A stretch of 64,000 nt of DNA from Deltaproteobacteria bacterium (GTDB lineage: Bacteria > Desulfobacterota > RBG-13-43-22), in NCBI GenBank assembly GCA_016219225.1, contig JACRBX010000047.1:3846-67845 (forward strand), read 5' to 3'. Shown piece by piece: positions 27,546 to 56,908 of the stretch. Positions within the stretch are counted from its first letter, which is position 1, and every line of letters starts with the position of its first letter. Both the position numbers and the translations under genes were made by a program. The notes beneath the pieces are model-generated. The model did no database searches and was not told the DNA's origin. It worked only from the letters and a program-made list of their open reading frames with translations.

Positions 27546-27705
27546 TAACCGTGTTCTCTTAAGAAAAGGCCCAAGGCGCAGGGTTCAAGGTTCAAGGAAA
27601 ACCGAGGGCCGGGGCGGGTTTAAAACCCACCCCTACAAAGGTTGAGGACTATTCATAGGTTTTCGAACCGAACTCCGAACTCTTAACTCCGAACTTTCTA
27701 TCGGG

Positions 27706-32840: not shown

Positions 32841-32874
32841 TCGCCCATAGCCCATAGCCTATTGCCCATAGCCC
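32841..32874. repeat. 7-nt-period tandem array (GCCCATA units) overlapping the 3' end of the hydrolase gene
   Basis: gcccatagcccatagcctattgcccatagccc. Confidence 0.65.
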
Positions 32875-33683
32875 TTTTGAGGTATTCTCCACTTGAAACT
32901 TGCATCTTGCATCCTGAAATTTAACAGGACGAAATCCCGAACAGCCTGATTGACCTCTTTGTGTTTTTCCAACATCACCAGGTGTCCTGCTCCGGGAATC
33001 AGGATGAGCCGGGAGGAAGCTATCTTTTTTTGAAGAAAGTGAGAAGAGGCCGGTGGAGTCATGACATCTTGATCTCCGACCAGGATCAGCGTTGGGATTT
33101 TGATAGTTGAGACTTCTTCCTGTCGATCGAAATGATCACAGGCCTGAAAATCTCCCTGAATAACGGGGATCGGGGTTTGCTCCATTAACTGGATGGATTG
33201 CCTGATAAGCTGGGGGGGAGTCCCCTGGGCAAAGCTCCCTTGAATGATCTTGGCCAGGGTTTCGTCCGGCTGTTTCTTTAATCCGGATACTATCTTGGGA
33301 GAAACTCCCAAAGTGGCCCCGGTGGCAATCAAAATCAAACCTTGGATTTTCTCCTGAAATCGCAGGCCAATCTCCAGAGCGATAGCCCCGCCCATAGAAT
33401 GACCGCCGAGGAAAAAGGTGTCGAAGAAAGGCCCCGTCAGGGTTTCGTGAACCCATTGGGCGTAAGAGGAAATGGAGGTCCTCCCCGGACCCGTAGTATT
33501 TCCATGACCGGGGAGTTCCAGGGTCAGTATGTTTAAAAAACGATCCAAGCCCCTCAGTTGCGGCAGAAAAGACTGGGAACTTCCGCCGGCCCCGTGAATC
33601 AGGACCAGGGTGGGTCTCTTAGGGAGCAAGCCGGAGTCGCCTGTCCGGAAACCTACATCAGCCGGCAGACCGTAACGTTGCAT
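32859..33683 (-). CDS. alpha/beta fold hydrolase
   Basis: HGAGGS oxyanion region and GHSMGG nucleophile elbow. Confidence 0.75.
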   Translation of the reverse strand: MQRYGLPADVGFRTGDSGLLPKRPTLVLIHGAGGSSQSFLPQLRGLDRFLNILTLELPGHGNTTGPGRTSISSYAQWVHETLTGPFFDTFFLGGHSMGGAIALEIGLRFQEKIQGLILIATGATLGVSPKIVSGLKKQPDETLAKIIQGSFAQGTPPQLIRQSIQLMEQTPIPVIQGDFQACDHFDRQEEVSTIKIPTLILVGDQDVMTPPASSHFLQKKIASSRLILIPGAGHLVMLEKHKEVNQAVRDFVLLNFRMQDASFKWRIPQKGYGQ

Positions 33684-37811: not shown

Positions 37812-37890
37812 GGGTTCGGAGTTCGGAGTTGGGAGTTTGTAGACGGACTATACTATAAACCTTATACTCCGAACTCTAAACTCCGAACTT
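37812..37890. repeat. Inverted pair of 7-nt-period arrays (GTTCGGA)n ... (TCCGAAC)n, potential long hairpin
   Basis: gggttcggagttcggagttgggagttt ... actccgaactctaaactccgaactt. Confidence 0.7.
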
Positions 37891-41273: not shown

Positions 41274-41305
41274 ACTCCCCTGAGAAACATCACGGTGTAA
41301 GCCCT

Positions 41306-41544
41306 CATGCCCGCACGAACACCACGAAACATGAAAATGCGAATATCGAATATCGAATATCGAATCATGAATATCGAAGGAGAGTTTCCTTTTAATTCCG
41401 AAATCCGAAATCTAAAATCCGAAATCGGAATATATTTTCGTACTAAGCCCCCATGCCTGTTTTGTAGGCCACGAACAATGAAAATGGGTTTCGCCGAACG
41501 CCGAACGCTTAACGCCGAACGTTTTTTTCGTACTAACTCCCATG
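41306..41544. repeat. Tandemly duplicated ~100-150-nt leader unit with three different embedded 7-mer arrays (ATCGAAT, TCCGAAA, GCCGAAC); the hdrL ATG lies inside the unit's terminal motif
   Basis: Each unit runs catgccYg ... cacgaaNcaNtgaaaatgNg ... 7-mer array ... tttcgtactaaScccatg; the second unit ends with the hdrL start codon. Confidence 0.6.
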
Positions 41545-44500
41545 AATCAAACCGTAGACCATAAAATTGGAGCCGTATTAATTGCCGGGGCCGGTATATC
41601 CGGCATGCAATCGGCCCTGGATCTGGCCAATGCGGGCTTTAAGGTCTATCTGGTAGAGAAGAACATCAGCATTGGCGGGGTTATGGCCCAGTTGGACAAG
41701 ACCTTTCCGACCAACGACTGTTCCACTTGTATGATTTCCCCTAAATTGATCGAAGTAGCCGGTAACCCCAATATCGAAATTATAACCCGGACCCGGATAA
41801 AAGGGATCGAGGGAGAACCGGGGAATTTTACCGTTGCTTTATATCGGGAACCCCGATTGATCAAGGAAGAGGCCTGCACCGGATGCGGAGAATGTATTAA
41901 GGCCTGTCCCGTCGAAGTCCCGGCCGATTTTAATCTTGGGCTCAACCGCCGGAAGGCCATTTACCGACATTTTCCACAAGCCGTACCTTCGGCCTTTGCC
42001 ATCGACCGGCGGGGTACCTCTCCCTGCAAGGCCGCCTGCCCGGCTCACATCAGCGTCCAGGGCTATGTGGCCCTGATTGCCCAGGGAAAGTTTGCCGAAG
42101 CCCTGAATCTCATTCGGCAGGAAAACCCCCTGCCTTTTGTCTGCGGTTATGTTTGTACCCATCCCTGCGAAGAAGCCTGTTTGCGACAAGAGGTGGATGC
42201 CTCGGTAGCCATCCGGGACCTCAAGCGCTTTGTGGCCGATTATGAGAGAAATCAAGAACCGGTAAGGCTTCCCCTGGTGGAAGGGAAAAAGCCCCGGAAG
42301 ATAGCCGTTGTTGGCTCCGGGCCGGCCGGGCTGACCTGCGCCTATTATCTAACTTTACAGGGATATTCCGTAGAGGTTTTTGAGGCCTTGCCCGTGGCCG
42401 GGGGCATGTTGACCGTCGGGATTCCCACCTACCGCTTGCCCAAAGAGGTGGTGGCAAGGGAAATTAAGGCCATTGAAGGCCTGGGGGTCCGAATTCATTT
42501 GAATGCACCAATTGGGCCTGATCATACTCTGGCAGATCTCAAAGAGAAGGGATTTGAGGCCGTTTTTATCGGTGTCGGGGCCCATCAAGGGATTCGTTTA
42601 GGGCTTGAAGGGGAAGACCTGGAAGGTGTGGTGGCCGGAGTGGATTTCCTCAGGCGGACAGCCCTGGGTCAACAGAAATCGTTGGGGAAAAAGATAGCCG
42701 TCATAGGCGGCGGCAATGTGGCCATCGATTCCGTACGGACCGCCCTGAGGATGGGGGCCGAAGAGGCCATGGTCCTTTACCGGCGGACCCGGGAGGAAAT
42801 GCCGGCCTACGAAGAAGAAATTGAAGAGGCCCTTGAGGAAGGGGTGTCCATCCATTACCTGACCGCCCCGATGAAATTTATTGGAGATGAAGGGGGCAAG
42901 CTTAAAGCCATTGAATGTCTTAAAATGGAGTTGGGTGATCCGGATGCCTCGGGCCGACGGAGACCGGTACCCATCGAAGGTTCCCTTTTTACGATTCCCG
43001 TAGACGGGGTGATTACGGCCGTCAGCCAACAACCAGAGATGGAAAAGCTGAAGCTTCCAGCAGGCGTTAAGGTTTCTCCCTTTGGGACCCTGGAGGTCGA
43101 TCCGGTTACCTTTCAGACCGACCTTCCCTGGGTTTTTGCCGGTGGAGATGCGGTTTCCGGGCCAAAGACGGTTATCGAGGCCATAGCCGCAGGCAAGGAA
43201 GCGGCTCTTTCCATTGATCGTTTTTTACAAGGGAAGGATCTGGCCGCGGACCGGGAGAAAATTTTCGAACCGGCCCGGCCGGATATTCAGGGTATAGCCA
43301 AATCCCCTCGTTGTAAACCCCGGCGAACCGATCCCAACAGACGCCGGACCCGATTTGAAGAAGTGGTCCAGGTCATGACCGAAGAGGAAGCCCGGACGGA
43401 AGCGGCCCGCTGTCTGGCCTGCGGAATCTGTTCCGAGTGCTATCAATGCCTCGAGGCCTGCAAGCCCGGGGCTATCGATCATGCCATGAAAGGAGAGGAT
43501 ATTTCTCTTCAGGTGGGGGCGGTTATTTTATCTCCCGGGTTTGAAATCTTTGATGCCCGTCTTAAAGGAGAATACGGTTACGGCCGATATCCCAATGTCT
43601 TGACCAGTTTGGAATTCGAACGCCTCCTTTCGGCCTCCGGTCCCTTTATGGGTCATATCCAGCGGCCTTCAGACGCTCAGGAACCCCGGAGGGTGGCCTG
43701 GATCCAGTGTGTCGGCTCCAGGGATGCCTCCATCAACCAGGATTACTGTTCCTATGTCTGCTGTATGGTTGCTACCAAGCAGGCCGTTATTGCCAAAGAA
43801 CATTTGCCTTCTCTGGAACCGACGATTTTTTTTATCGACCTGAGGGCCCAAGGCAAAGGCTTTGACCGTTATTATGAACGGGCCAGGCATGAGCATGGGG
43901 TCCGCTATGTGCGCAGTATGATTTCCCGGGTGGTGGAGCATCCCAAGACCCACGATTTAATCATCTCCTATATTGATGAGAACAATGCTTTCCAGAATGA
44001 GGAATTCGACCTGGTAATCCTTTCGGTAGGCCTCAAGCCCCATTCCGAATCCCGGCAGCTCGCCCGGATATTAGATATCCGGACCGATCGCTTTGGTTTC
44101 AGCCAGGCGCCGCCTTTTAATGCGCTGGGAACTTCTCAACCGGGAATTTTTGCCAGCGGTGTCTTTCAAAACCCCAAGGATATTCCGGAGACGGTAACCC
44201 AGGCCAGCGGTGCAGCCGGGGAAGCGGCCGCCTTGCTCTCGGGGGCCCGGGGCACGAAGATCAGGGAATTGGTCTTTCCGGAAGAACGGACGGTGGCCGG
44301 GGAAGAACCGAAGATCGGGGTGCTGATCTGCCATTGCGGCATCAATATCGCCGGGGTGGTGGATGTGGATCAGGTGACGGAATATGCCAAAACCCTGCCC
44401 CAGGTTGTTTATGCCGATCACTTCCTTTTTACCTGTTCGACGGACAGCCAGGAACGGATGCAGCAAATCATAAAAGAACAGGGCTTGAACCGGGTTATCG

Positions 44501-45963
44501 TGGCCTCCTGTTCCCCCCGGACCCACGAAGGTTTATTTCAAGATACGCTGCGCAAGGCCGGACTGAATAAATACCTCTTTGAGATGGCCAATATCCGTGA
44601 CCAATGCTCCTGGGTCCATCAGAGCGAACCGGGGCTGGCCACGGAAAAGGCCAAGGATCTGGTGCGCATGGCCGTGGCCCGGGCCGGGCGTTTGGAATCC
44701 CTTTATGACCGTCCGCTCGATGTAATCCAAAAGGGCCTGGTCCTAGGCGGGGGTGTGGCCGGGATGACGGCGGCCCTCAACCTGGCCGAACAGGGATTCG
44801 AGACCTGCCTGATCGAACAATCCGATCGGTTGGGTGGCCAGGCTTTGAGACTGCATCAGACCCTGGAAGAAAGGGGTGTGCAGGATTATGTGGGCCGGTT
44901 GATTAAACAGGTAACCGAACATGCCGGGATTCAGGTCTATACCGAAAGCCAGGTCCTGGACATGAAAGGGTCTATCGGCCAATTTACGAGTACTATTGCA
45001 AAAAACGGGGAAAAGGTCTCGATTGACCACGGCGTGGCTATTGTGGCAACCGGGGCCTCGGAGTATCTGCCGAAAGAGTATCTGTTTGGGAAGCATCCCG
45101 GTGTGGTCACCCAACTGGAATTCCAGGACTGGCTTTTTCAGCAACCGGAAAAAATCCAGGGGGCTAAGCAGGTCGTCATGATCCAATGTGTGGGTTCCCG
45201 GGAAGAAGAGCATCCCTACTGCAGTCGGGTTTGTTGTTCCACGGCGGTGGCCAATGCCTTAAGGATCAAGGAAATCAGCCCGAAAACCGAGGTTATTATC
45301 CTGTACCGGGATATGCGGACGTACGGCCGGAAAGAGCTCTATTATAAACAGGCCAGGGAGGCCGGCGTCCGGTTTATCCGCTTTGATTTTGAAGTCAAAC
45401 CCGAAGTCGTGGAAGAAGGAGGCGGCTTGAAGGTCACGGTTATGGACCAAAGCCTTAAAGCCTACCTCATCCTTAGGCCGGATTATCTGGCCCTTTCAGC
45501 GGCCATACGCCCGGCCCCGGAAATTAAAAATCTGGCCACAACGCTGAAACTCCCGCTGGATGCCGATGGTTTTTTCCTGGAGGCTCATATTAAACTGAGA
45601 CCCTTGGACTTTGCCAATGCCGGGATGTTTCTCTGCGGTCTGGGGCACGGCCCTAAATCCCTGGAAGAAAGCATTGTCCAGGCTAAAGGGGCCGCAGCCC
45701 GGTCAGCCACGATCCTGGGCCAGAAACAGATTCAGGTCGGCGGTAAGACGGCTGTGGTGGATGAAGAGTTATGCATCGCTTGTCTGACCTGTGTCCGGGT
45801 GTGTCCTTTTGGGGTTCCCATGATCAATGAACGCCATTTTGCTGAAATGAACCCGGCCGCCTGCCAGGGATGCGGGAACTGCGCCACGGCCTGTCCCCAG
45901 GGGGCCATTCAGGTAGGCCATTCCAAGGACGAACAGTTTATAGCTTTATTGGAGGCGTGTTGA
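41542..45963 (+). CDS. HdrL-type giant flavoprotein: HdrA N-terminus + 2x[4Fe-4S] ferredoxin + GltD/NfnB-like NAD(P)H domain + second HdrA-like module
   Basis: GAGISGMQSALDLA (HdrA FAD site); CxxCxxCxxxCP ferredoxin motifs; KIAVVGSGPAGLTCAYYL...GGMLTVGIPTYRLP (GltD-like); two CVGSRD..CSxVCC Cys clusters; second Rossmann VLGGGVAGMTAAL. Confidence 0.75.
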   Translation: MNQTVDHKIGAVLIAGAGISGMQSALDLANAGFKVYLVEKNISIGGVMAQLDKTFPTNDCSTCMISPKLIEVAGNPNIEIITRTRIKGIEGEPGNFTVALYREPRLIKEEACTGCGECIKACPVEVPADFNLGLNRRKAIYRHFPQAVPSAFAIDRRGTSPCKAACPAHISVQGYVALIAQGKFAEALNLIRQENPLPFVCGYVCTHPCEEACLRQEVDASVAIRDLKRFVADYERNQEPVRLPLVEGKKPRKIAVVGSGPAGLTCAYYLTLQGYSVEVFEALPVAGGMLTVGIPTYRLPKEVVAREIKAIEGLGVRIHLNAPIGPDHTLADLKEKGFEAVFIGVGAHQGIRLGLEGEDLEGVVAGVDFLRRTALGQQKSLGKKIAVIGGGNVAIDSVRTALRMGAEEAMVLYRRTREEMPAYEEEIEEALEEGVSIHYLTAPMKFIGDEGGKLKAIECLKMELGDPDASGRRRPVPIEGSLFTIPVDGVITAVSQQPEMEKLKLPAGVKVSPFGTLEVDPVTFQTDLPWVFAGGDAVSGPKTVIEAIAAGKEAALSIDRFLQGKDLAADREKIFEPARPDIQGIAKSPRCKPRRTDPNRRRTRFEEVVQVMTEEEARTEAARCLACGICSECYQCLEACKPGAIDHAMKGEDISLQVGAVILSPGFEIFDARLKGEYGYGRYPNVLTSLEFERLLSASGPFMGHIQRPSDAQEPRRVAWIQCVGSRDASINQDYCSYVCCMVATKQAVIAKEHLPSLEPTIFFIDLRAQGKGFDRYYERARHEHGVRYVRSMISRVVEHPKTHDLIISYIDENNAFQNEEFDLVILSVGLKPHSESRQLARILDIRTDRFGFSQAPPFNALGTSQPGIFASGVFQNPKDIPETVTQASGAAGEAAALLSGARGTKIRELVFPEERTVAGEEPKIGVLICHCGINIAGVVDVDQVTEYAKTLPQVVYADHFLFTCSTDSQERMQQIIKEQGLNRVIVASCSPRTHEGLFQDTLRKAGLNKYLFEMANIRDQCSWVHQSEPGLATEKAKDLVRMAVARAGRLESLYDRPLDVIQKGLVLGGGVAGMTAALNLAEQGFETCLIEQSDRLGGQALRLHQTLEERGVQDYVGRLIKQVTEHAGIQVYTESQVLDMKGSIGQFTSTIAKNGEKVSIDHGVAIVATGASEYLPKEYLFGKHPGVVTQLEFQDWLFQQPEKIQGAKQVVMIQCVGSREEEHPYCSRVCCSTAVANALRIKEISPKTEVIILYRDMRTYGRKELYYKQAREAGVRFIRFDFEVKPEVVEEGGGLKVTVMDQSLKAYLILRPDYLALSAAIRPAPEIKNLATTLKLPLDADGFFLEAHIKLRPLDFANAGMFLCGLGHGPKSLEESIVQAKGAAARSATILGQKQIQVGGKTAVVDEELCIACLTCVRVCPFGVPMINERHFAEMNPAACQGCGNCATACPQGAIQVGHSKDEQFIALLEAC

Positions 45964-45967
45964 AAGA

Positions 45968-46146
45968 AAGGTGTAAGGTACAAGGTATAAGGTGTAAGGT
46001 AAAACCGTTCGGCGAACATTAAATGTTCAGTGTGCGTCAATCAACCCATTTAAACCTGACATCTTGAACCTGGGCTAACTATTGGGGGAAGGTGTAAGAC
46101 ACACGGTTGGTTTTACCTTGAACCTTGAACCATGTACCTTGCACCG
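45968..46146. repeat. Inverted pair of AAGGTNN 7-mer arrays around a ~100-nt spacer (which contains the palindrome gaacattaaatgttc)
   Basis: aaggtgtaaggtacaaggtataaggtgtaaggtaaaacc ... ggttttaccttgaaccttgaaccatgtaccttgcacc. Confidence 0.7.
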
Positions 46147-46156
46147 TTAATTTATT

Positions 46157-46573
46157 ATGTTTGAATCATTCGAACCTAAAATCATTGCCATGGTCTGTAC
46201 CTATTGTACCTATACGGCGGCTGATATGGCCGGGTCCATGAGATTGCAATATCCCTGGAATGTGCGGATTGTCAAATATCTTTGTACCGGCAAGATCGAT
46301 ATTCAGCACATCTTGAAAGTCTTTGAAAAAGGGGCTGATGCCATCCTGGTCGGCGGCTGAGAAATCGGCGACTGCCATTTCCTGGAAGGAAATCTAAGAG
46401 CCAAAGAACGAGTGGAATATGCTAAAGAACTGTTGAAAGAAATCGGTCTGGAACCCGGGCGACTCGAGATGTTCCACATCGGGGCCTCCGATGCTCCGGC
46501 CTGGGCCAAAGCCGTGACGGAGATGACCAACAGGGCCAGGGATCTGGGGGCGAACCCACTTAAAAGATATTAG
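46157..46573 (+). CDS. mvhD: MvhD-like [2Fe-2S] hydrogenase delta-subunit homolog, selenocysteine-containing (in-frame UGA at 46358-46360)
   Basis: The ORF stops at TGA in GADAILVGG-TGA-EIGDCHF, exactly where MvhD has the conserved Cys of G-C-x-x-GDCHY; translation continues in frame for 70 more codons with the conserved MvhD C-terminus (GNLRAKERVEYAKELLKEIGLEPGRLE) to TAG 46571-46573; hairpin atttcc-tggaa-ggaaat at 46377-46393. Confidence 0.7.
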
Positions 46574-48241: not shown

Positions 48242-49288
48242 GTGAATCCCACTAATTCCAAAGTACTCATCCTCGGCGGCGGCATTGCCGGCCTAACGGC
48301 TGCCCTGGCCCTTGGCCGTTTGAATATACCAGTGGAACTGATCGAAAAATCAGAGGCCCTGGGAGGAATGGCCCGGAATTTTTGTTGTAAGGCCACAGAA
48401 GCCTGCCAGCAATGCGGTGCCTGTCTTATAAATGATGCCCTGGCGGCCTTGACTAAAGAACCCTTTATTGAGATTCATTTGCAAACCGAGTTAACCGCAT
48501 TAAAGATGGAAGCCAAGGAATTTCTCTATACTTATAGCCGCCCTGGGGGGGGCGGCGAGGGAAGGGCCCAGGCCCTTCTCCTGGCAACCGGTTTTACCCC
48601 CTTCAGGGCTGAAGACAAACCCCAGTATCGGTATAAAACCTTGCCCAATGTCCTGACCGGGTTAGATCTGGAAAGACAACTTAAAGACACCGGGAACATC
48701 GTCAGACCATCCGATCGGACCATCCCCCAGTCCATAGCCTTTATTCAATGTGTCGGCAGCAGAGACCTTCATTCAGGACATCCCTATTGTTCTCAGGTTT
48801 GCTGCGGTTATGCCCTGCGCCTGGCCAACCTGATCAAGCATAAGAATCCGGAGATGGCCGTCACTGTTTTTTATATGGACATCCAGACCTTCGGCCAGAA
48901 TTTCCCCCTCTTTATGGAACAAAGCCGAAAGCAAATAACTTTTGTCCGTTCCATTCCCGGCGAAATACAAAAGGGGGAGAACGATCAGGCCGTCTTAACC
49001 TTCCAGAAGGAGACCGGGGCCGGCAGTCAAAAACAAGCCTTTGATCTGGCCGTGCTCTCCATCGGCATCAGACCCGGGCCGGACCATTTGTTTTTAGCGC
49101 AACGATTGGGAATTTCACTAACGCCCGATGGTTTCCTGAGTAAAGACGAAGGGTCTTCCTTCCGGCCGGAAGGGATTTTTTTTGCCGGCACTGTTCAAGG
49201 GCCTAAAGGCATCGAGCGAAGCATTTCCCAGGCCTATCAGGCCGCCGAAGAAGTGGCCGATTATTTGAAAACGAGGTCGAACCAGTGA
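48242..49288 (+). CDS. short HdrA-like FAD-dependent oxidoreductase (lacks the ferredoxin insert)
   Basis: LILGGGIAGLTAA Rossmann motif; FIQCVGSRDLHSGHPYCSQVCC cluster; HdrA C-terminal motif FFAGTVQGPKGIERSISQA. Confidence 0.7.
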   Translation: MNPTNSKVLILGGGIAGLTAALALGRLNIPVELIEKSEALGGMARNFCCKATEACQQCGACLINDALAALTKEPFIEIHLQTELTALKMEAKEFLYTYSRPGGGGEGRAQALLLATGFTPFRAEDKPQYRYKTLPNVLTGLDLERQLKDTGNIVRPSDRTIPQSIAFIQCVGSRDLHSGHPYCSQVCCGYALRLANLIKHKNPEMAVTVFYMDIQTFGQNFPLFMEQSRKQITFVRSIPGEIQKGENDQAVLTFQKETGAGSQKQAFDLAVLSIGIRPGPDHLFLAQRLGISLTPDGFLSKDEGSSFRPEGIFFAGTVQGPKGIERSISQAYQAAEEVADYLKTRSNQ

Positions 49289-50943
49289 TTCCCCTGGAAG
49301 AATTTAAAAAGATTCCCAGGGTGCTCATCCTGGGGAAGGGACTGACGGCCCAGGAAACGGCCGCACAACTGATTTCCTTAGGCTATGAGGTACTGTCGGT
49401 CGATCCCGATGACCAAAGGCCATTGCTGCGGATCGAAGGTTTTGCCGGGGACTTCCAGGTGCAATTTAAATCCGGACAAAAGCAATGGACTGAGGCTGTA
49501 GGCGCCATTGTTTTTGCTCCTGAGTTGGTTGCTGAACCCAAACCAGATGTCTATTCCTTGACCGCTTCCGATCAAATCATAGGTATTGATGGCCTGGTTG
49601 AACTTCTTTCCCCCTCACCTTCACCCCATGGAATGGAAGAATTGGTTCCAGCGGGCCAGTCTCCTTCGGCCTATCCGGCCTTCAGTTCTTCTTCTTATAT
49701 TGCCTTCCTGGTTGGGTTACAGGACGAAGGAAACGTGGCCGAAATGGCCAGGATCTTTTGGCTGGCCTTAAAGATTCGAAAGGAATATCAATCACAAGTT
49801 TATATCTTTTGCCGTCATATCAAGGTGGCCGAAGAGGGGATGGAGAGGCTCTACCAGACTTGCCGGGACGAAGGGGTGATTTTTTTCAAGTTTGATGGGG
49901 CAGGGCCGGAAATGGTCAGGATTGGAGAATCGATCGGCTTGGAATTTGAAGATGCCGTGTTAGGACAGCCTTTTGAATTAAAGCCCGATCTTCTGGTTAT
50001 TGAACCCCTCCAGGTGCTGCCCCGGGAAATCCGGGAATTGGCTGTTTCCGCTCAAATCGGGATGGATGGAATGGGTTTCCTTCAGCCGGCCAATGTTCAC
50101 CTGCTGCCCCAGGCCTCAAAGCGGGAGGGGATATTTATCGCCGGTCCGGGAAAAGGCCCCATGGTCCCTCAAGCCTGTTTGGAAGAAGCCCGGGCCGCGG
50201 CGTTGTCGATCCATCATTTTTTTGAAGGCCGGATTTCAGACCAGATGGACCGGGAGGTTACGGTTGATAAGGGGCTTTGCACCATCTGTCTAACCTGTCT
50301 CCGCTACTGTCCCCATCAGGCCATAGGCTTTACCCACCGGGTTTTTATCCACCCTCTGGCCTGCCGGCGTTGCGGCATCTGTGCCAGTGAATGCCCCATG
50401 GATGCTATACAAATCGCCGGTTTTTCCGATCAGGAGGTGGAGCTGAAATTAGCGGCCCTCCAGGAAAGATGGGAGCAAATGGAAACCGGTCTGGTCAGGA
50501 TGGTTATTTTCGGTTGTCAGCGGTCGGCCGGGAGGGCCTGGGAGGAAGCTCAAAGCTCAAAGCTCAAAGTTCAAAGCGACAACGAAGAGGTGCAAGGTAC
50601 AAGGTATAAGATACAAGGTGAAATCGAATTTATTGCACTGCCCTGTGCCGGAAAGCTGGACCCCGATTATATACTGAAAGCCTTGAGTATGGGGGCCGAT
50701 GGGGTGCTGGTTCTGGCCTGTCCGGAAGAAAATTGTAAATCCTTACACGGGAATACTTACGCCCGGGAGCGTATCCAGGAGGCCCGGCATTATGTGGAAG
50801 AGGCGGGCCTCAATCCGGAAAAGATCCGTTTTAACAATTTATCGAGCAACATGGTTTGGTATTTAAAGGAAATTATCGGGGAATTTATGGATGAACTAAG
50901 CGAATCCAAAATTCCGCAATCCGCAATCCGCAATCCGAAATAG
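49285..50943 (+). CDS. fusion protein: degenerate HdrA-like domain + 2x[4Fe-4S] ferredoxin + MvhD-like domain, with an internal repeat-encoded insertion and repeat-encoded C-terminal tail
   Basis: CTICLTCLRYCP / CRRCGICASECP motifs; MvhD motifs VIFGCQRSAG ... IALPCAGKLD ... GADGVLVLACPEENC; 7-mer arrays at 50546-50616 and 50896-50943 lie in frame. Confidence 0.65.
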   Translation: MIPLEEFKKIPRVLILGKGLTAQETAAQLISLGYEVLSVDPDDQRPLLRIEGFAGDFQVQFKSGQKQWTEAVGAIVFAPELVAEPKPDVYSLTASDQIIGIDGLVELLSPSPSPHGMEELVPAGQSPSAYPAFSSSSYIAFLVGLQDEGNVAEMARIFWLALKIRKEYQSQVYIFCRHIKVAEEGMERLYQTCRDEGVIFFKFDGAGPEMVRIGESIGLEFEDAVLGQPFELKPDLLVIEPLQVLPREIRELAVSAQIGMDGMGFLQPANVHLLPQASKREGIFIAGPGKGPMVPQACLEEARAAALSIHHFFEGRISDQMDREVTVDKGLCTICLTCLRYCPHQAIGFTHRVFIHPLACRRCGICASECPMDAIQIAGFSDQEVELKLAALQERWEQMETGLVRMVIFGCQRSAGRAWEEAQSSKLKVQSDNEEVQGTRYKIQGEIEFIALPCAGKLDPDYILKALSMGADGVLVLACPEENCKSLHGNTYARERIQEARHYVEEAGLNPEKIRFNNLSSNMVWYLKEIIGEFMDELSESKIPQSAIRNPK

Positions 50944-50947
50944 AACG

Positions 50948-51415
50948 ATGGATCGTATTGACCTGAAAAAATTAGACCCCGATTTTAAGCACCGGTTAGC
51001 CCGGGAATTGGGGGGGGAACACATCAAAAAATGTTTTTCCTGCGGGGTCTGCTCGGCCCGCTGCCCCGTAGAAAAAATCGAGCCGGAGTATAACCCGAGA
51101 AAGATCATCCGTATGATCTTGTTAGGCATGGAAGAGGCCTTGCTCAAAGAAGAATTCCTCTGGCACTGTTCGACCTGTTATACCTGTCAGGAATCCTGCC
51201 CCCAGAAGGTTAATTTTACGGAAGTCATCTTCGCCTTGCGCAACCTGGCCGTCCGCAAAGGCCTGGCCCCGCCCGGTATGGGAGCGGCCCGGAATTTACT
51301 CAGTCAGCAGGGTCGGATGTATGAGGTGGGGGATTTTGAAAATGAGAAACGTCAGGAACTGGGGCTGCCGAAGATAATGGGAAACCCGGAGGAATATAAG
51401 AAGCTCTTAGGATAA
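50948..51415 (+). CDS. hdrC: heterodisulfide reductase subunit C-like (2x[4Fe-4S])
   Basis: CFSCGVCSARCPV and CSTCYTCQESCPQKV motifs. Confidence 0.8.
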   Translation: MDRIDLKKLDPDFKHRLARELGGEHIKKCFSCGVCSARCPVEKIEPEYNPRKIIRMILLGMEEALLKEEFLWHCSTCYTCQESCPQKVNFTEVIFALRNLAVRKGLAPPGMGAARNLLSQQGRMYEVGDFENEKRQELGLPKIMGNPEEYKKLLG

Positions 51416-52843: not shown

Positions 52844-52926
52844 CAGGCGCAAGGCGCAGGGCACAAGGCGTAAGGTAAAAAAAGAAGAAGATTTTCCTTG
52901 AACCTTGCGCCTTGTGCCTTGCGCCC
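52844..52926. repeat. Inverted pair of AAGGCGN 7-mer arrays (hairpin-forming)
   Basis: caggcgcaaggcgcagggcacaaggcgtaaggtaaaaa ... ttttccttgaaccttgcgccttgtgccttgcgcc. Confidence 0.7.
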
Positions 52927-56825: not shown

Positions 56826-56908
56826 AAGGTACAAGGCGTAAGGCTCAAGGTAAAAACGGGGAAATTAAAAGGTCTAACCCTTGTGCCTTGTGCCCTGCGC
56901 CTTGCGCC
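56826..56908. repeat. Inverted pair of AAGGNNN 7-mer arrays
   Basis: aaggtacaaggcgtaaggctcaaggtaaaaac ... cccttgtgccttgtgccctgcgccttgcgcc. Confidence 0.7.

Follow-up and report, generated by a model that had tools for sequence, protein, structure and literature searches.

The window analysed here is the whole stretch of 64,000 nucleotides (nt) from contig JACRBX010000047.1 of a Deltaproteobacteria bacterium, and our subject is a run of 7-nt tandem repeats that lies inside one of its genes without interrupting the reading frame. The gene is a single open reading frame (ORF) whose product of 552 amino acids (aa) combines, in this order, the C-terminal half of an HdrA-like flavoprotein, a 2x[4Fe-4S] ferredoxin and an MvhD/FlpD domain; an exact protein match, from a 'Deltaproteobacteria bacterium' metagenome-assembled genome (MAG), is present in public collections. 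The repeat is flanked by FGCQRSAGRAWEE and EIEFIALPCAGK and consists of ten heptamers in one register (50548-50617), which encode A422-G445 of the fusion protein. The units are given below in order from 50548, with GTGAAAT following the tenth.

49285-50943, forward strand: HdrA-C-terminal / 2x[4Fe-4S] ferredoxin / MvhD(FlpD) fusion gene, a single ORF of 552 aa (MBI5602474.1)
50548-50575, forward strand: heptamer sub-array 1, GCTCAAA GCTCAAA GCTCAAA GTTCAAA, encoding AQSSKLKVQ(S)
50576-50589, forward strand: two degenerate units in register, GCGACAA CGAAGAG, encoding (S)DNEE and also found in the relatives L001 and L081
50590-50624, forward strand: heptamer sub-array 2, GTGCAAG GTACAAG GTATAAG ATACAAG GTGAAAT, encoding VQGTRYKIQGE and aligning with the canonical MvhD loop

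The Pfam FlpD profile (PF02662) matches residues 437-539 over profile positions 18-120, with 94.3 bits against a cut-off of 22.3 (E = 7e-27), and Fer4 matches residues 325-376. In phmmer searches the protein matched solved HdrA and MvhD chains, the latter being 5odc_D, 7bkb_F and 9sfi_K, and its predicted fold is HdrA-like. The FlpD alignment begins within the loop encoded by sub-array 2, at Q437, and BLASTP pairs R440-K457 without gaps with the stand-alone MvhD paralog of the same cluster from its R29 onwards. Profile positions 1-17 are left unaligned because of the repeat loop, which accounts for the cut-off MvhD matches that domain searches return for these proteins; AlphaFold2, run with the ortholog alignment, still places a strand (404-411) and a helix (412-424) ahead of a strand at 445-452. 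Between the helix and the latter strand, residues 427-440 have a predicted local distance difference test score (pLDDT) below 50. Although the model as a whole is of moderate quality (mean pLDDT 67), the repeat is thus predicted to encode a disordered α1–β2 loop of the MvhD-like domain. An earlier note on this DNA, made from the letters alone, had proposed structure prediction as a way to see whether the stretch is a surface loop.

The same note had recognised an in-frame heptamer array within the fusion gene, and Tandem Repeats Finder (TRF) bears this out, calling two period-7 arrays inside the ORF, at 50546-50577 (AAGCTCA, 4.6 copies, 92% matches, score 57) and at 50588-50619 (AGGTACA, 4.6 copies, score 43). 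The best 28-nt window of the array has 20 of 21 lag-7 matches, and the array has the form of a heptanucleotide simple sequence repeat (SSR), that is, head-to-tail tandem units of 1-11 nt extending further than chance would allow. It is of the same kind as the period-7 arrays of the intergenic spacers, as had been proposed. As 7 is not divisible by 3, the reading frame returns to the same point of the unit only after three units, or seven codons, and the encoded peptide has a beat of seven residues (AQSSKLK / VQSDNEE / VQGTRYK / IQGE).

Two explanations were rejected. Against an assembly error at the repeats, which the note had raised, the loop length is equal in three independent assemblies (the window, L001 and L081; L numbers denote orthologous loci and P numbers orthologous proteins), and the array is just 70 nt long. 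The ORF could also have been two genes with a stop-free spacer between them, but no in-frame stop or credible restart site occurs in any ortholog, and the MvhD fold extends across the array.

A protein search returned about 70 orthologs with 50-94% identity, and DNA was examined for 30 orthologs, comprising 17 genome loci (including L081) and 13 metagenome loci, over the same range of protein identity. The first point to note is that a linker lies at the same place in every aligned ortholog, typically reading AQGSGYKVQGE, AESSKLKAQSN or VQSSKFKVQSD. At the DNA level, a heptamer-periodic loop is found at this site in 27 of the 30, the signal being lost only in L091, L093 and L094, and TRF calls the loop a period-7 array in 15 of 16 genome orthologs. 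The units themselves are diverse. The loops of L008 and L082 consist of four perfect copies of GTTCAAA and that of L084 has three of GTTCAAC; less regular runs are ATTCAAA GTTCAAA GTTCGAA GTTCAAA (L007), GTGCAAG GTTCAGG GTTCAAG GTCCAAG (L003), GCTGAAA GCTCAAA GCTGAAA GCGCAAA (L004), GCGCAGA GCGCAGA GCGCCAA (L010) and GCGCGGG GCGCGGG GCGCGGA GCGCAGG (L090). In the outgroup fusion family (about 33% identity, Desulfobacterales), which has ...AGEMAKKFKIKLPDGLKMIKVPC at the equivalent loop, there is no periodicity. Since the array is present in nearly all orthologs but not in this family, it dates to the ancestor of the ortholog clade. The earlier note would have counted it as a refutation if orthologs universally carried an equivalent linker of unrelated nucleotide sequence; the equivalent linker is indeed there, but its nucleotides are related and heptamer-periodic.

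With four units, the usual number among orthologs, the loop has the spacing of a canonical MvhD. From the first Cys to the point where R440 pairs with R29 of the paralog, BLASTP counts 29 residues in the window protein and 15 in the paralog, which means that the window carries 14 additional residues, or 42 nt in six units, and not a foreign block of 70 nt. Thus the extra length relative to the paralogous MvhD at 46157, as reported earlier, is real, but it amounts to a net 14 aa and not to the whole 23-aa stretch. The same six additional units are found in L001 (94% identity) and L081 (93%), so that the expansion predates the split of these three lineages and is not strain-specific, as had been considered possible.

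These comparisons bear directly on the proposal that the array is mobile and was inserted, according to which the AAGGTNN repeat of a neighbouring spacer would recently have transposed into the gene in this strain. The spacer is as follows.

45968-46145, forward strand: HdrA–MvhD spacer with two inverted arrays, AAGGTNN (45968-46001) and ACCTTGN (46115-46145); RNA fold -76 kcal/mol, z = -6.5

The near-identity of the coding array to this spacer repeat proved to be partial: 50594-50610 equals 45975-45991 exactly over 17 nt, and there is a 13-nt reverse-complement match to 46133-46145, but the GCTCAAA half has no such match. These matches, together with the 14 aa by which the loop exceeds that of the paralog, are what speaks for an insertion. 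However, the shared AAGGT core leaves four variable positions in the 17-mer, which would put the chance of such a match at roughly a few percent. In the closest relative, L001, the loop matches its own spacer array over 11 nt only, and across the genomes own-genome matches are no longer than cross-genome ones. In addition, almost every ortholog, including those of only about 50% identity, has an array at the same codons, the units gained continue the register of the ancestral one, the length is equal in all three close relatives, and the flanks of the array in the window sequence contain no target duplications or mobile-element features. We give a recent insertion next to no credence, and the HdrA–MvhD spacer is context for the coding array, not its source. 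Gene conversion or co-variation between the loop array and the HdrA–MvhD spacer arrays, which L007, L008 and L016 suggested by eye, was rejected on the same comparison of own-genome and cross-genome matches.

The array evolves as a DNA repeat. Its 7-nt periodicity exceeds that of synonymous recodings of the same peptide at all 17 genome loci, including the window (P ≤ 0.016 each, many < 0.0005), and also at most metagenome loci. Mean unit identity is 0.75 within arrays, compared with 0.505 for units at equal positions of different genomes and 0.497 when position is disregarded, which indicates concerted evolution. The process can be followed between close relatives: the window and L081 agree at 97% of the 1258 nt upstream of the array, and yet their first four units differ in a coordinated way, being GTTCAAC GTTCAAC GTTCAAG GTTCAAA in L081 and three GCTCAAA followed by GTTCAAA in the window. 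Array identity is 0.78-0.88 against 0.96-0.97 for the upstream coding sequence (Fisher p = 0.007 to 3e-8). Unit homogenisation and copy-number change between relatives, the marks of repeat-like evolution, are both seen, the latter in the loop-length classes given below and in a 15-nt difference between the C-terminal tail arrays of the window and L001.

It could be argued that what is selected is the peptide, with the linker [AV]Q[GS]S[GK][FY]K[VA]Q[GS] kept for docking or as a flexible hinge and the DNA periodicity a by-product. The motif, especially [FY]K[VA]Q[GS], does occur in most of the 62 orthologous proteins for which the loop was compared, and the canonical loop length is preferred (28 of 62). 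Each heptamer, however, is read in a different frame, so that peptide selection cannot hold the units identical, and the excess of periodicity over synonymous recodings at every genome locus is not what such selection would give. Moreover, lineage-wide unit switches alter several residues together, for instance from QGSGFKVQG to QSSKFKVQS to QSAERQAQG, and the loop is predicted, in a model of moderate quality, to be disordered. A selected peptide seems to us quite improbable.

Two further observations concern the array in individual lineages. When L081 (1900-2400) is compared with window positions 50621-51000, the part of the gene after the array is 85% identical, as against 97% for the 5' part, and the downstream sequence is unrelated, a pattern in the alignment that suggests a recombination breakpoint at or near the array. 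The unit GTTCAAC (peptide VQRSTF...) occurs both in L081, a 93% relative, and in orthologs of 54% identity (the L084 / P0023 loops), through either convergence or exchange of loops between lineages.

Loop lengths in the 62 orthologous proteins are 16 aa (28 proteins), 23 (8), 30 (3) and 37 (1), with scattered other values; among the 34 lengths other than 16, 12 lie whole multiples of 7 aa away from it (binomial p = 0.002, with no correction for relatedness). Clean duplications of three units, or 7 aa, can be read in the peptides of P0015 (IRGSRSK IQGSKFE) and P0032 (VQGSWFK VQGSNIN VQNN). The clustering of the loop lengths upholds the earlier suggestion that the repeat can expand without breaking the frame. 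In simulations, a change of ±21 nt kept the frame, whereas ±7 or ±14 nt truncated the protein at 436-468 aa, ahead of the MvhD core (443 or 461 aa for ±7 nt).

Such truncation is what would be expected of a contingency (phase-variation) locus, in which gain or loss of one unit reversibly turns off the MvhD-like domain. The unit is not a multiple of three and lies inside an ORF, complete homogenisation of the units implies single-unit events, and the nearby stand-alone MvhD paralog could buffer an OFF state. Nevertheless, none of the 30 orthologs examined as DNA has a frameshift within the array, and no ON/OFF copy-number polymorphism was met among the assemblies compared, the loop length being identical in the window, L001 and L081. 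The arrays are also short (about four perfect units), for which low slippage rates are predicted, and the gene encodes a core energy-metabolism subunit and not a surface or host-interaction protein. We consider phase variation very improbable here. Three candidates for frameshifted alleles were set aside because their frameshifts lie elsewhere: in L014 a single nucleotide is inserted shortly after the 3' end of the loop, and in L015 and L016 the frame is broken many times along the gene but never within the array. All three belong to the MFD-series MAGs, which we take to be long-read assemblies, and the truncated proteins P0068 and P0070 are explained likewise.

The coding array has to be seen against the abundance of such repeats in this DNA. 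As a stricter custom repeat finder under-called degenerate arrays, TRF was used instead, together with 30 Markov-1 shuffles; it found 20 period-7 arrays in the window where 1.1 were expected. Other periods are mostly near expectation, although period 9 (7 against 1.0) and periods 10-15 are also raised, though to a much smaller degree than period 7. Of the 20 arrays, 17 lie in the intergenic sequence that makes up some 8% of the window, and the remaining three are all in the 552-aa gene. The ortholog loci carry 4.4 period-7 arrays per 10 kb, compared with 0.98 for outgroup loci, and those outgroup loci that have several arrays come from the same MAGs as the orthologs. In all these genomes arrays occupy the same syntenic spacers, HdrA–MvhD, MetF–HdrA', 552-aa gene–HdrC and downstream of GcvH, with differing units. 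A census of the window and L001-L013, about 200 kb, gave 83 period-7 arrays, of which 17 lie deep (> 60 nt) inside long open frames, and 15 of these 17 are the MvhD loop. The arrays are nearly confined to spacers, presumably because gain or loss of one unit within a gene shifts its reading frame.

The spacer arrays are mostly inverted complementary pairs that fold into long hairpins (z = -6.5, -6.8 and -3.7 in the window). In the syntenic spacers of six other genomes the hairpins have z = -2.6 to -7.6 and are built of unrelated units (AATGCAA/ATTTTGC and GATGCTG/TATCCAG, for example). The coding array lacks a second, complementary array nearby and is a single 'orphan arm', the sole coding exception among the arrays sampled. 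As to the spacers themselves, period-7 arrays are found in the window at 45968-46145, 37814-37889, 52845-52925, 27582-27695, 32843-32913, 41340-41521 and 56826-56908, and the occurrence of hairpins at the same positions but with unrelated units in L004, L006, L010, L014, L015 and L016 amounts to compensatory change en bloc. In this Thermodesulfobacteriota clade the hairpin pairs may represent a kind of spacer element that has not been described before, and may outrank the coding array in interest.

This distribution makes it necessary to weigh whether the coding array is a functional nucleic-acid element, the repeat in mRNA or DNA being itself recognised, for instance by whichever factor or process has the spacer arrays as its target. 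The repeat might otherwise be a platform for binding to single strands, or might make translation pause between the ferredoxin module and the MvhD module. Its persistence and repeated re-homogenisation over deep divergence would fit such a role, as would its being the sole coding site among about 80 arrays in an operon where every spacer has arrays at conserved syntenic positions. The coding arrays of 17 orthologs are also slightly less base-paired than their flanks (mean pairing probability 0.57 against 0.63, p = 0.02). On the other hand, the units vary widely between genomes, and between the arrays of one genome, which leaves no common motif for a sequence-specific factor. The mRNA around the coding array folds no better than shuffled sequence (z = +1.2), so that, unlike the spacer hairpins, it has neither a complementary arm nor significant structure, and a conserved mRNA structure, sought by folding against shuffles and by pairing in the 17 orthologs, was rejected. 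The array evolves faster than the flanking coding sequence and has decayed in L091, L093 and L094, and an Rfam scan of the whole window gave no family at the gathering threshold. We think such a role unlikely.

The reading that we prefer, with a probability of roughly 0.7, is that the coding array is an old, tolerated heptanucleotide SSR, maintained by slippage in the α1–β2 loop of the MvhD-like domain. The clade, which comprises uncultured Thermodesulfobacteriota ('Desulfobacca-like' MAGs), would generate period-7 arrays genome-wide. In the ancestor of the orthologs an array of roughly four units (consensus GYNCARR) would have become fixed in the loop, where it would encode a short, hydrophilic, disordered linker of canonical length, [AV]Q[GS]S[GK][FYL]K[VA]Q[GS]. 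Since then the units would have been homogenised lineage by lineage through slipped-strand mispairing or template switching, so that periodicity kept being regenerated, with decay in a few lineages. Selection would remove the outcomes that break the frame, and the length changes that survive would typically be of three units (21 nt, 7 aa). The six-unit gain (42 nt, 14 aa) in the lineage of the window would have preceded its separation from the relatives at 93-94% identity, after which the array would have diverged faster than the gene. The comparisons show the array and its periodicity, its presence in nearly all orthologs, its concerted evolution, the conserved frame and the predicted disorder; that slippage is the mechanism, and that the peptide is tolerated or neutral, we infer.

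Several points weigh against this reading. A neutral repeat of four units should decay over about 50% protein divergence, and yet several distant lineages have perfect or near-perfect arrays. Full homogenisation, to four identical units, cannot be reached by three-unit steps alone; it requires either single-unit events, with frameshifted intermediates, or length-neutral template switching. Neither kind of event was seen directly, and not one of the 30 orthologs has a frameshifted allele. The rival explanations find their opening here, and the survival of the array in about 27 of 30 orthologs may be due to selection, either of the nucleic acid or of the fairly conserved peptide [FY]K[VA]Q[GS]. 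The AlphaFold2 model is only of moderate quality, at mean pLDDT 67, and kinship among the sequences inflates the simple statistics. A broader alternative is that the clade's arrays are positionally conserved functional elements, with hairpin pairs in each spacer of the operon, and that the coding copy is retained and time and again re-homogenised as a repeat recognised on the DNA or mRNA (for binding, processing or pausing) or as a slow frame-switch. This we regard as rather unlikely; if it were true, the coding sequence would hold a second, overlapping layer of selected information.

Heptanucleotide repeats are familiar from other prokaryotes, among them the short tandemly repeated repetitive (STRR) sequences of cyanobacteria. 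They are the commonest class of long SSR in prokaryotes, are enriched in spacers, and often consist of about four units, sometimes in inverted pairs (PMC4692102; PMC4679880); according to the summary of Mrazek et al. 2007 given in PMC4679880, long heptanucleotide SSRs are over-represented between genes and under-represented within them. GGGAATC/GGGGAYT arrays are described from Xanthomonas and Nostoc (PMC4692102), and the TAACTGA arrays of Beggiatoaceae occasionally overlap the ends of ORFs (PMC4679880). The arrays described here resemble these in their tandem 7-nt units, copy number of about four, bias towards spacers, inverted stem-loop pairs and overlap with an ORF end, for which the C-terminal tail of the 552-aa protein is comparable. 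They differ in that the named families have one characteristic unit per genome, whereas here each array has its own unit on a loose GYNCARR / NNCAAGG theme. The TAACTGA, STRR, GGGAATC and GGACCGG units are absent from the 20 window arrays, whose units include GCTCAAA, GTNCAAG and TCCGCAA. Furthermore, published coding cases of heptamers lie at protein termini or in hypothetical proteins, and not, as here, inside a conserved catalytic-type domain, at an orthologous site, throughout a clade.

In Geobacter metallireducens, an element of four tandem heptanucleotides (GGACCGG) has 49 copies, some between genes and others inside them (Aklujkar et al. 2009, PMC2700814). It is similar in having four heptamers as its basic form, in being intragenic as well as intergenic, and in its occurrence in a related group of anaerobic 'deltaproteobacteria'. 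It is, however, one multicopy sequence family, which was detected by BLAST and for which a role as a regulatory RNA element was proposed, whereas here the units vary, the intragenic array stands alone among those sampled, and conservation is of position and not of sequence. Contingency loci, the phase-variable SSRs inside ORFs of host-adapted bacteria such as Haemophilus and Neisseria (PMC3315296, PMC2651432), share with our array the position within an ORF and a unit that is not a multiple of three, so that a change of one unit would switch the frame. The difference is that here 30 orthologs show no copy-number polymorphism or OFF alleles, the arrays are short, and the gene is a core metabolic one of a free-living anaerobe.

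Literature searches on heptamer arrays, including one for sulfate reducers, turned up no account of them from this clade. As a rule, genes either lose repeats with a unit length not divisible by three or use them as on/off switches; this period-7 repeat has remained in frame throughout a clade, at one orthologous position in a conserved redox module. It offers a clear case from nature of a protein loop that a microsatellite has written and goes on rewriting, it can serve as a marker for an undescribed heptamer-rich lineage of Thermodesulfobacteriota, and it raises the question of how units are homogenised without frameshifted intermediates.

A second repeat lies at the 3' end of the same ORF.

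50913-50941, forward strand: TCCGCAA/AATCCGN array, 4.1 copies by TRF (score 51), encoding PQSAIRNPK and ending 4 nt before the hdrC start codon (50948)

The earlier reading of the C-terminal tail ...KIPQSAIRNPK as encoded by a CCGCAAT array was correct. In L002 the array comes after the stop codon and is untranslated, and in the window, L001 and L004 it comes before the stop; L001 has an array 15 nt shorter than that of the window, and L081 has none. Because the stop lies downstream of the AATCCGN spacer array before hdrC, the array is translated incidentally, and the tail is a read-through into spacer sequence. AlphaFold2 gives its residues (543-552) pLDDT below 50. About 15 of the 62 orthologs have NPQSAIRNPK-like tails, and these odd extensions are translated spacer repeats, not functional additions to the protein.

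Unlike the other arrays, the AATCCGN array before hdrC (50913-50950; L001, L002 and L004) keeps its unit across distant orthologs, and the PQSAIRNPK tail is identical in a protein of 60% identity. The array reaches right up to the ATG of hdrC, where no Shine-Dalgarno motif can be made out; it may have a role in the initiation or coupling of hdrC translation. In L005, L007, L008 and L015 a conserved palindrome resembling repetitive extragenic palindromes (ggggccggttttaaaccggcccc) follows the stop codon in place of this array.

The surrounding cluster runs hdrA(long) - mvhD - metV-like - metF - hdrA' (348 aa) - 552-aa gene - hdrC - hdrB - gcvH, and the order from hdrA to hdrB is the known acetyl-CoA-pathway arrangement. 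The FlpD match, the solved MvhD chains and the gene order all liken it to MetFV-HdrABC-MvhD-type clusters with HdrA-MvhD fusions. It departs from them in the α1–β2 loop, whose canonical form (in the paralog, ...GSMRLQYPWNV...) gives way in the 552-aa protein to the repeat-encoded linker, 14 aa longer. The ORF for a 348-aa flavin adenine dinucleotide-binding, HdrA-N-like protein (48242-49288) overlaps the 552-aa ORF (49285-50943) by GTGA, and the two together look like a split HdrA; the first ~320 residues of the 552-aa protein still yield a thioredoxin-reductase-like fold.

The stand-alone MvhD paralog (46157-46573) has an in-frame TGA at 46358-46360, probably a selenocysteine codon, opposite a conserved Cys that belongs to 'ACPEENC' in the fusion protein; the fold of a small hairpin at 46377-46393, 17 nt 3' of this TGA, is not significant (z = -1.0). 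Further upstream, at 41542-45963, lies a very long HdrA-like fusion ORF of 1473 aa, and the spacer in front of it (41274-41541) contains three different heptamer arrays, CGAATAT, TCCGAAA and CGCCGAA.

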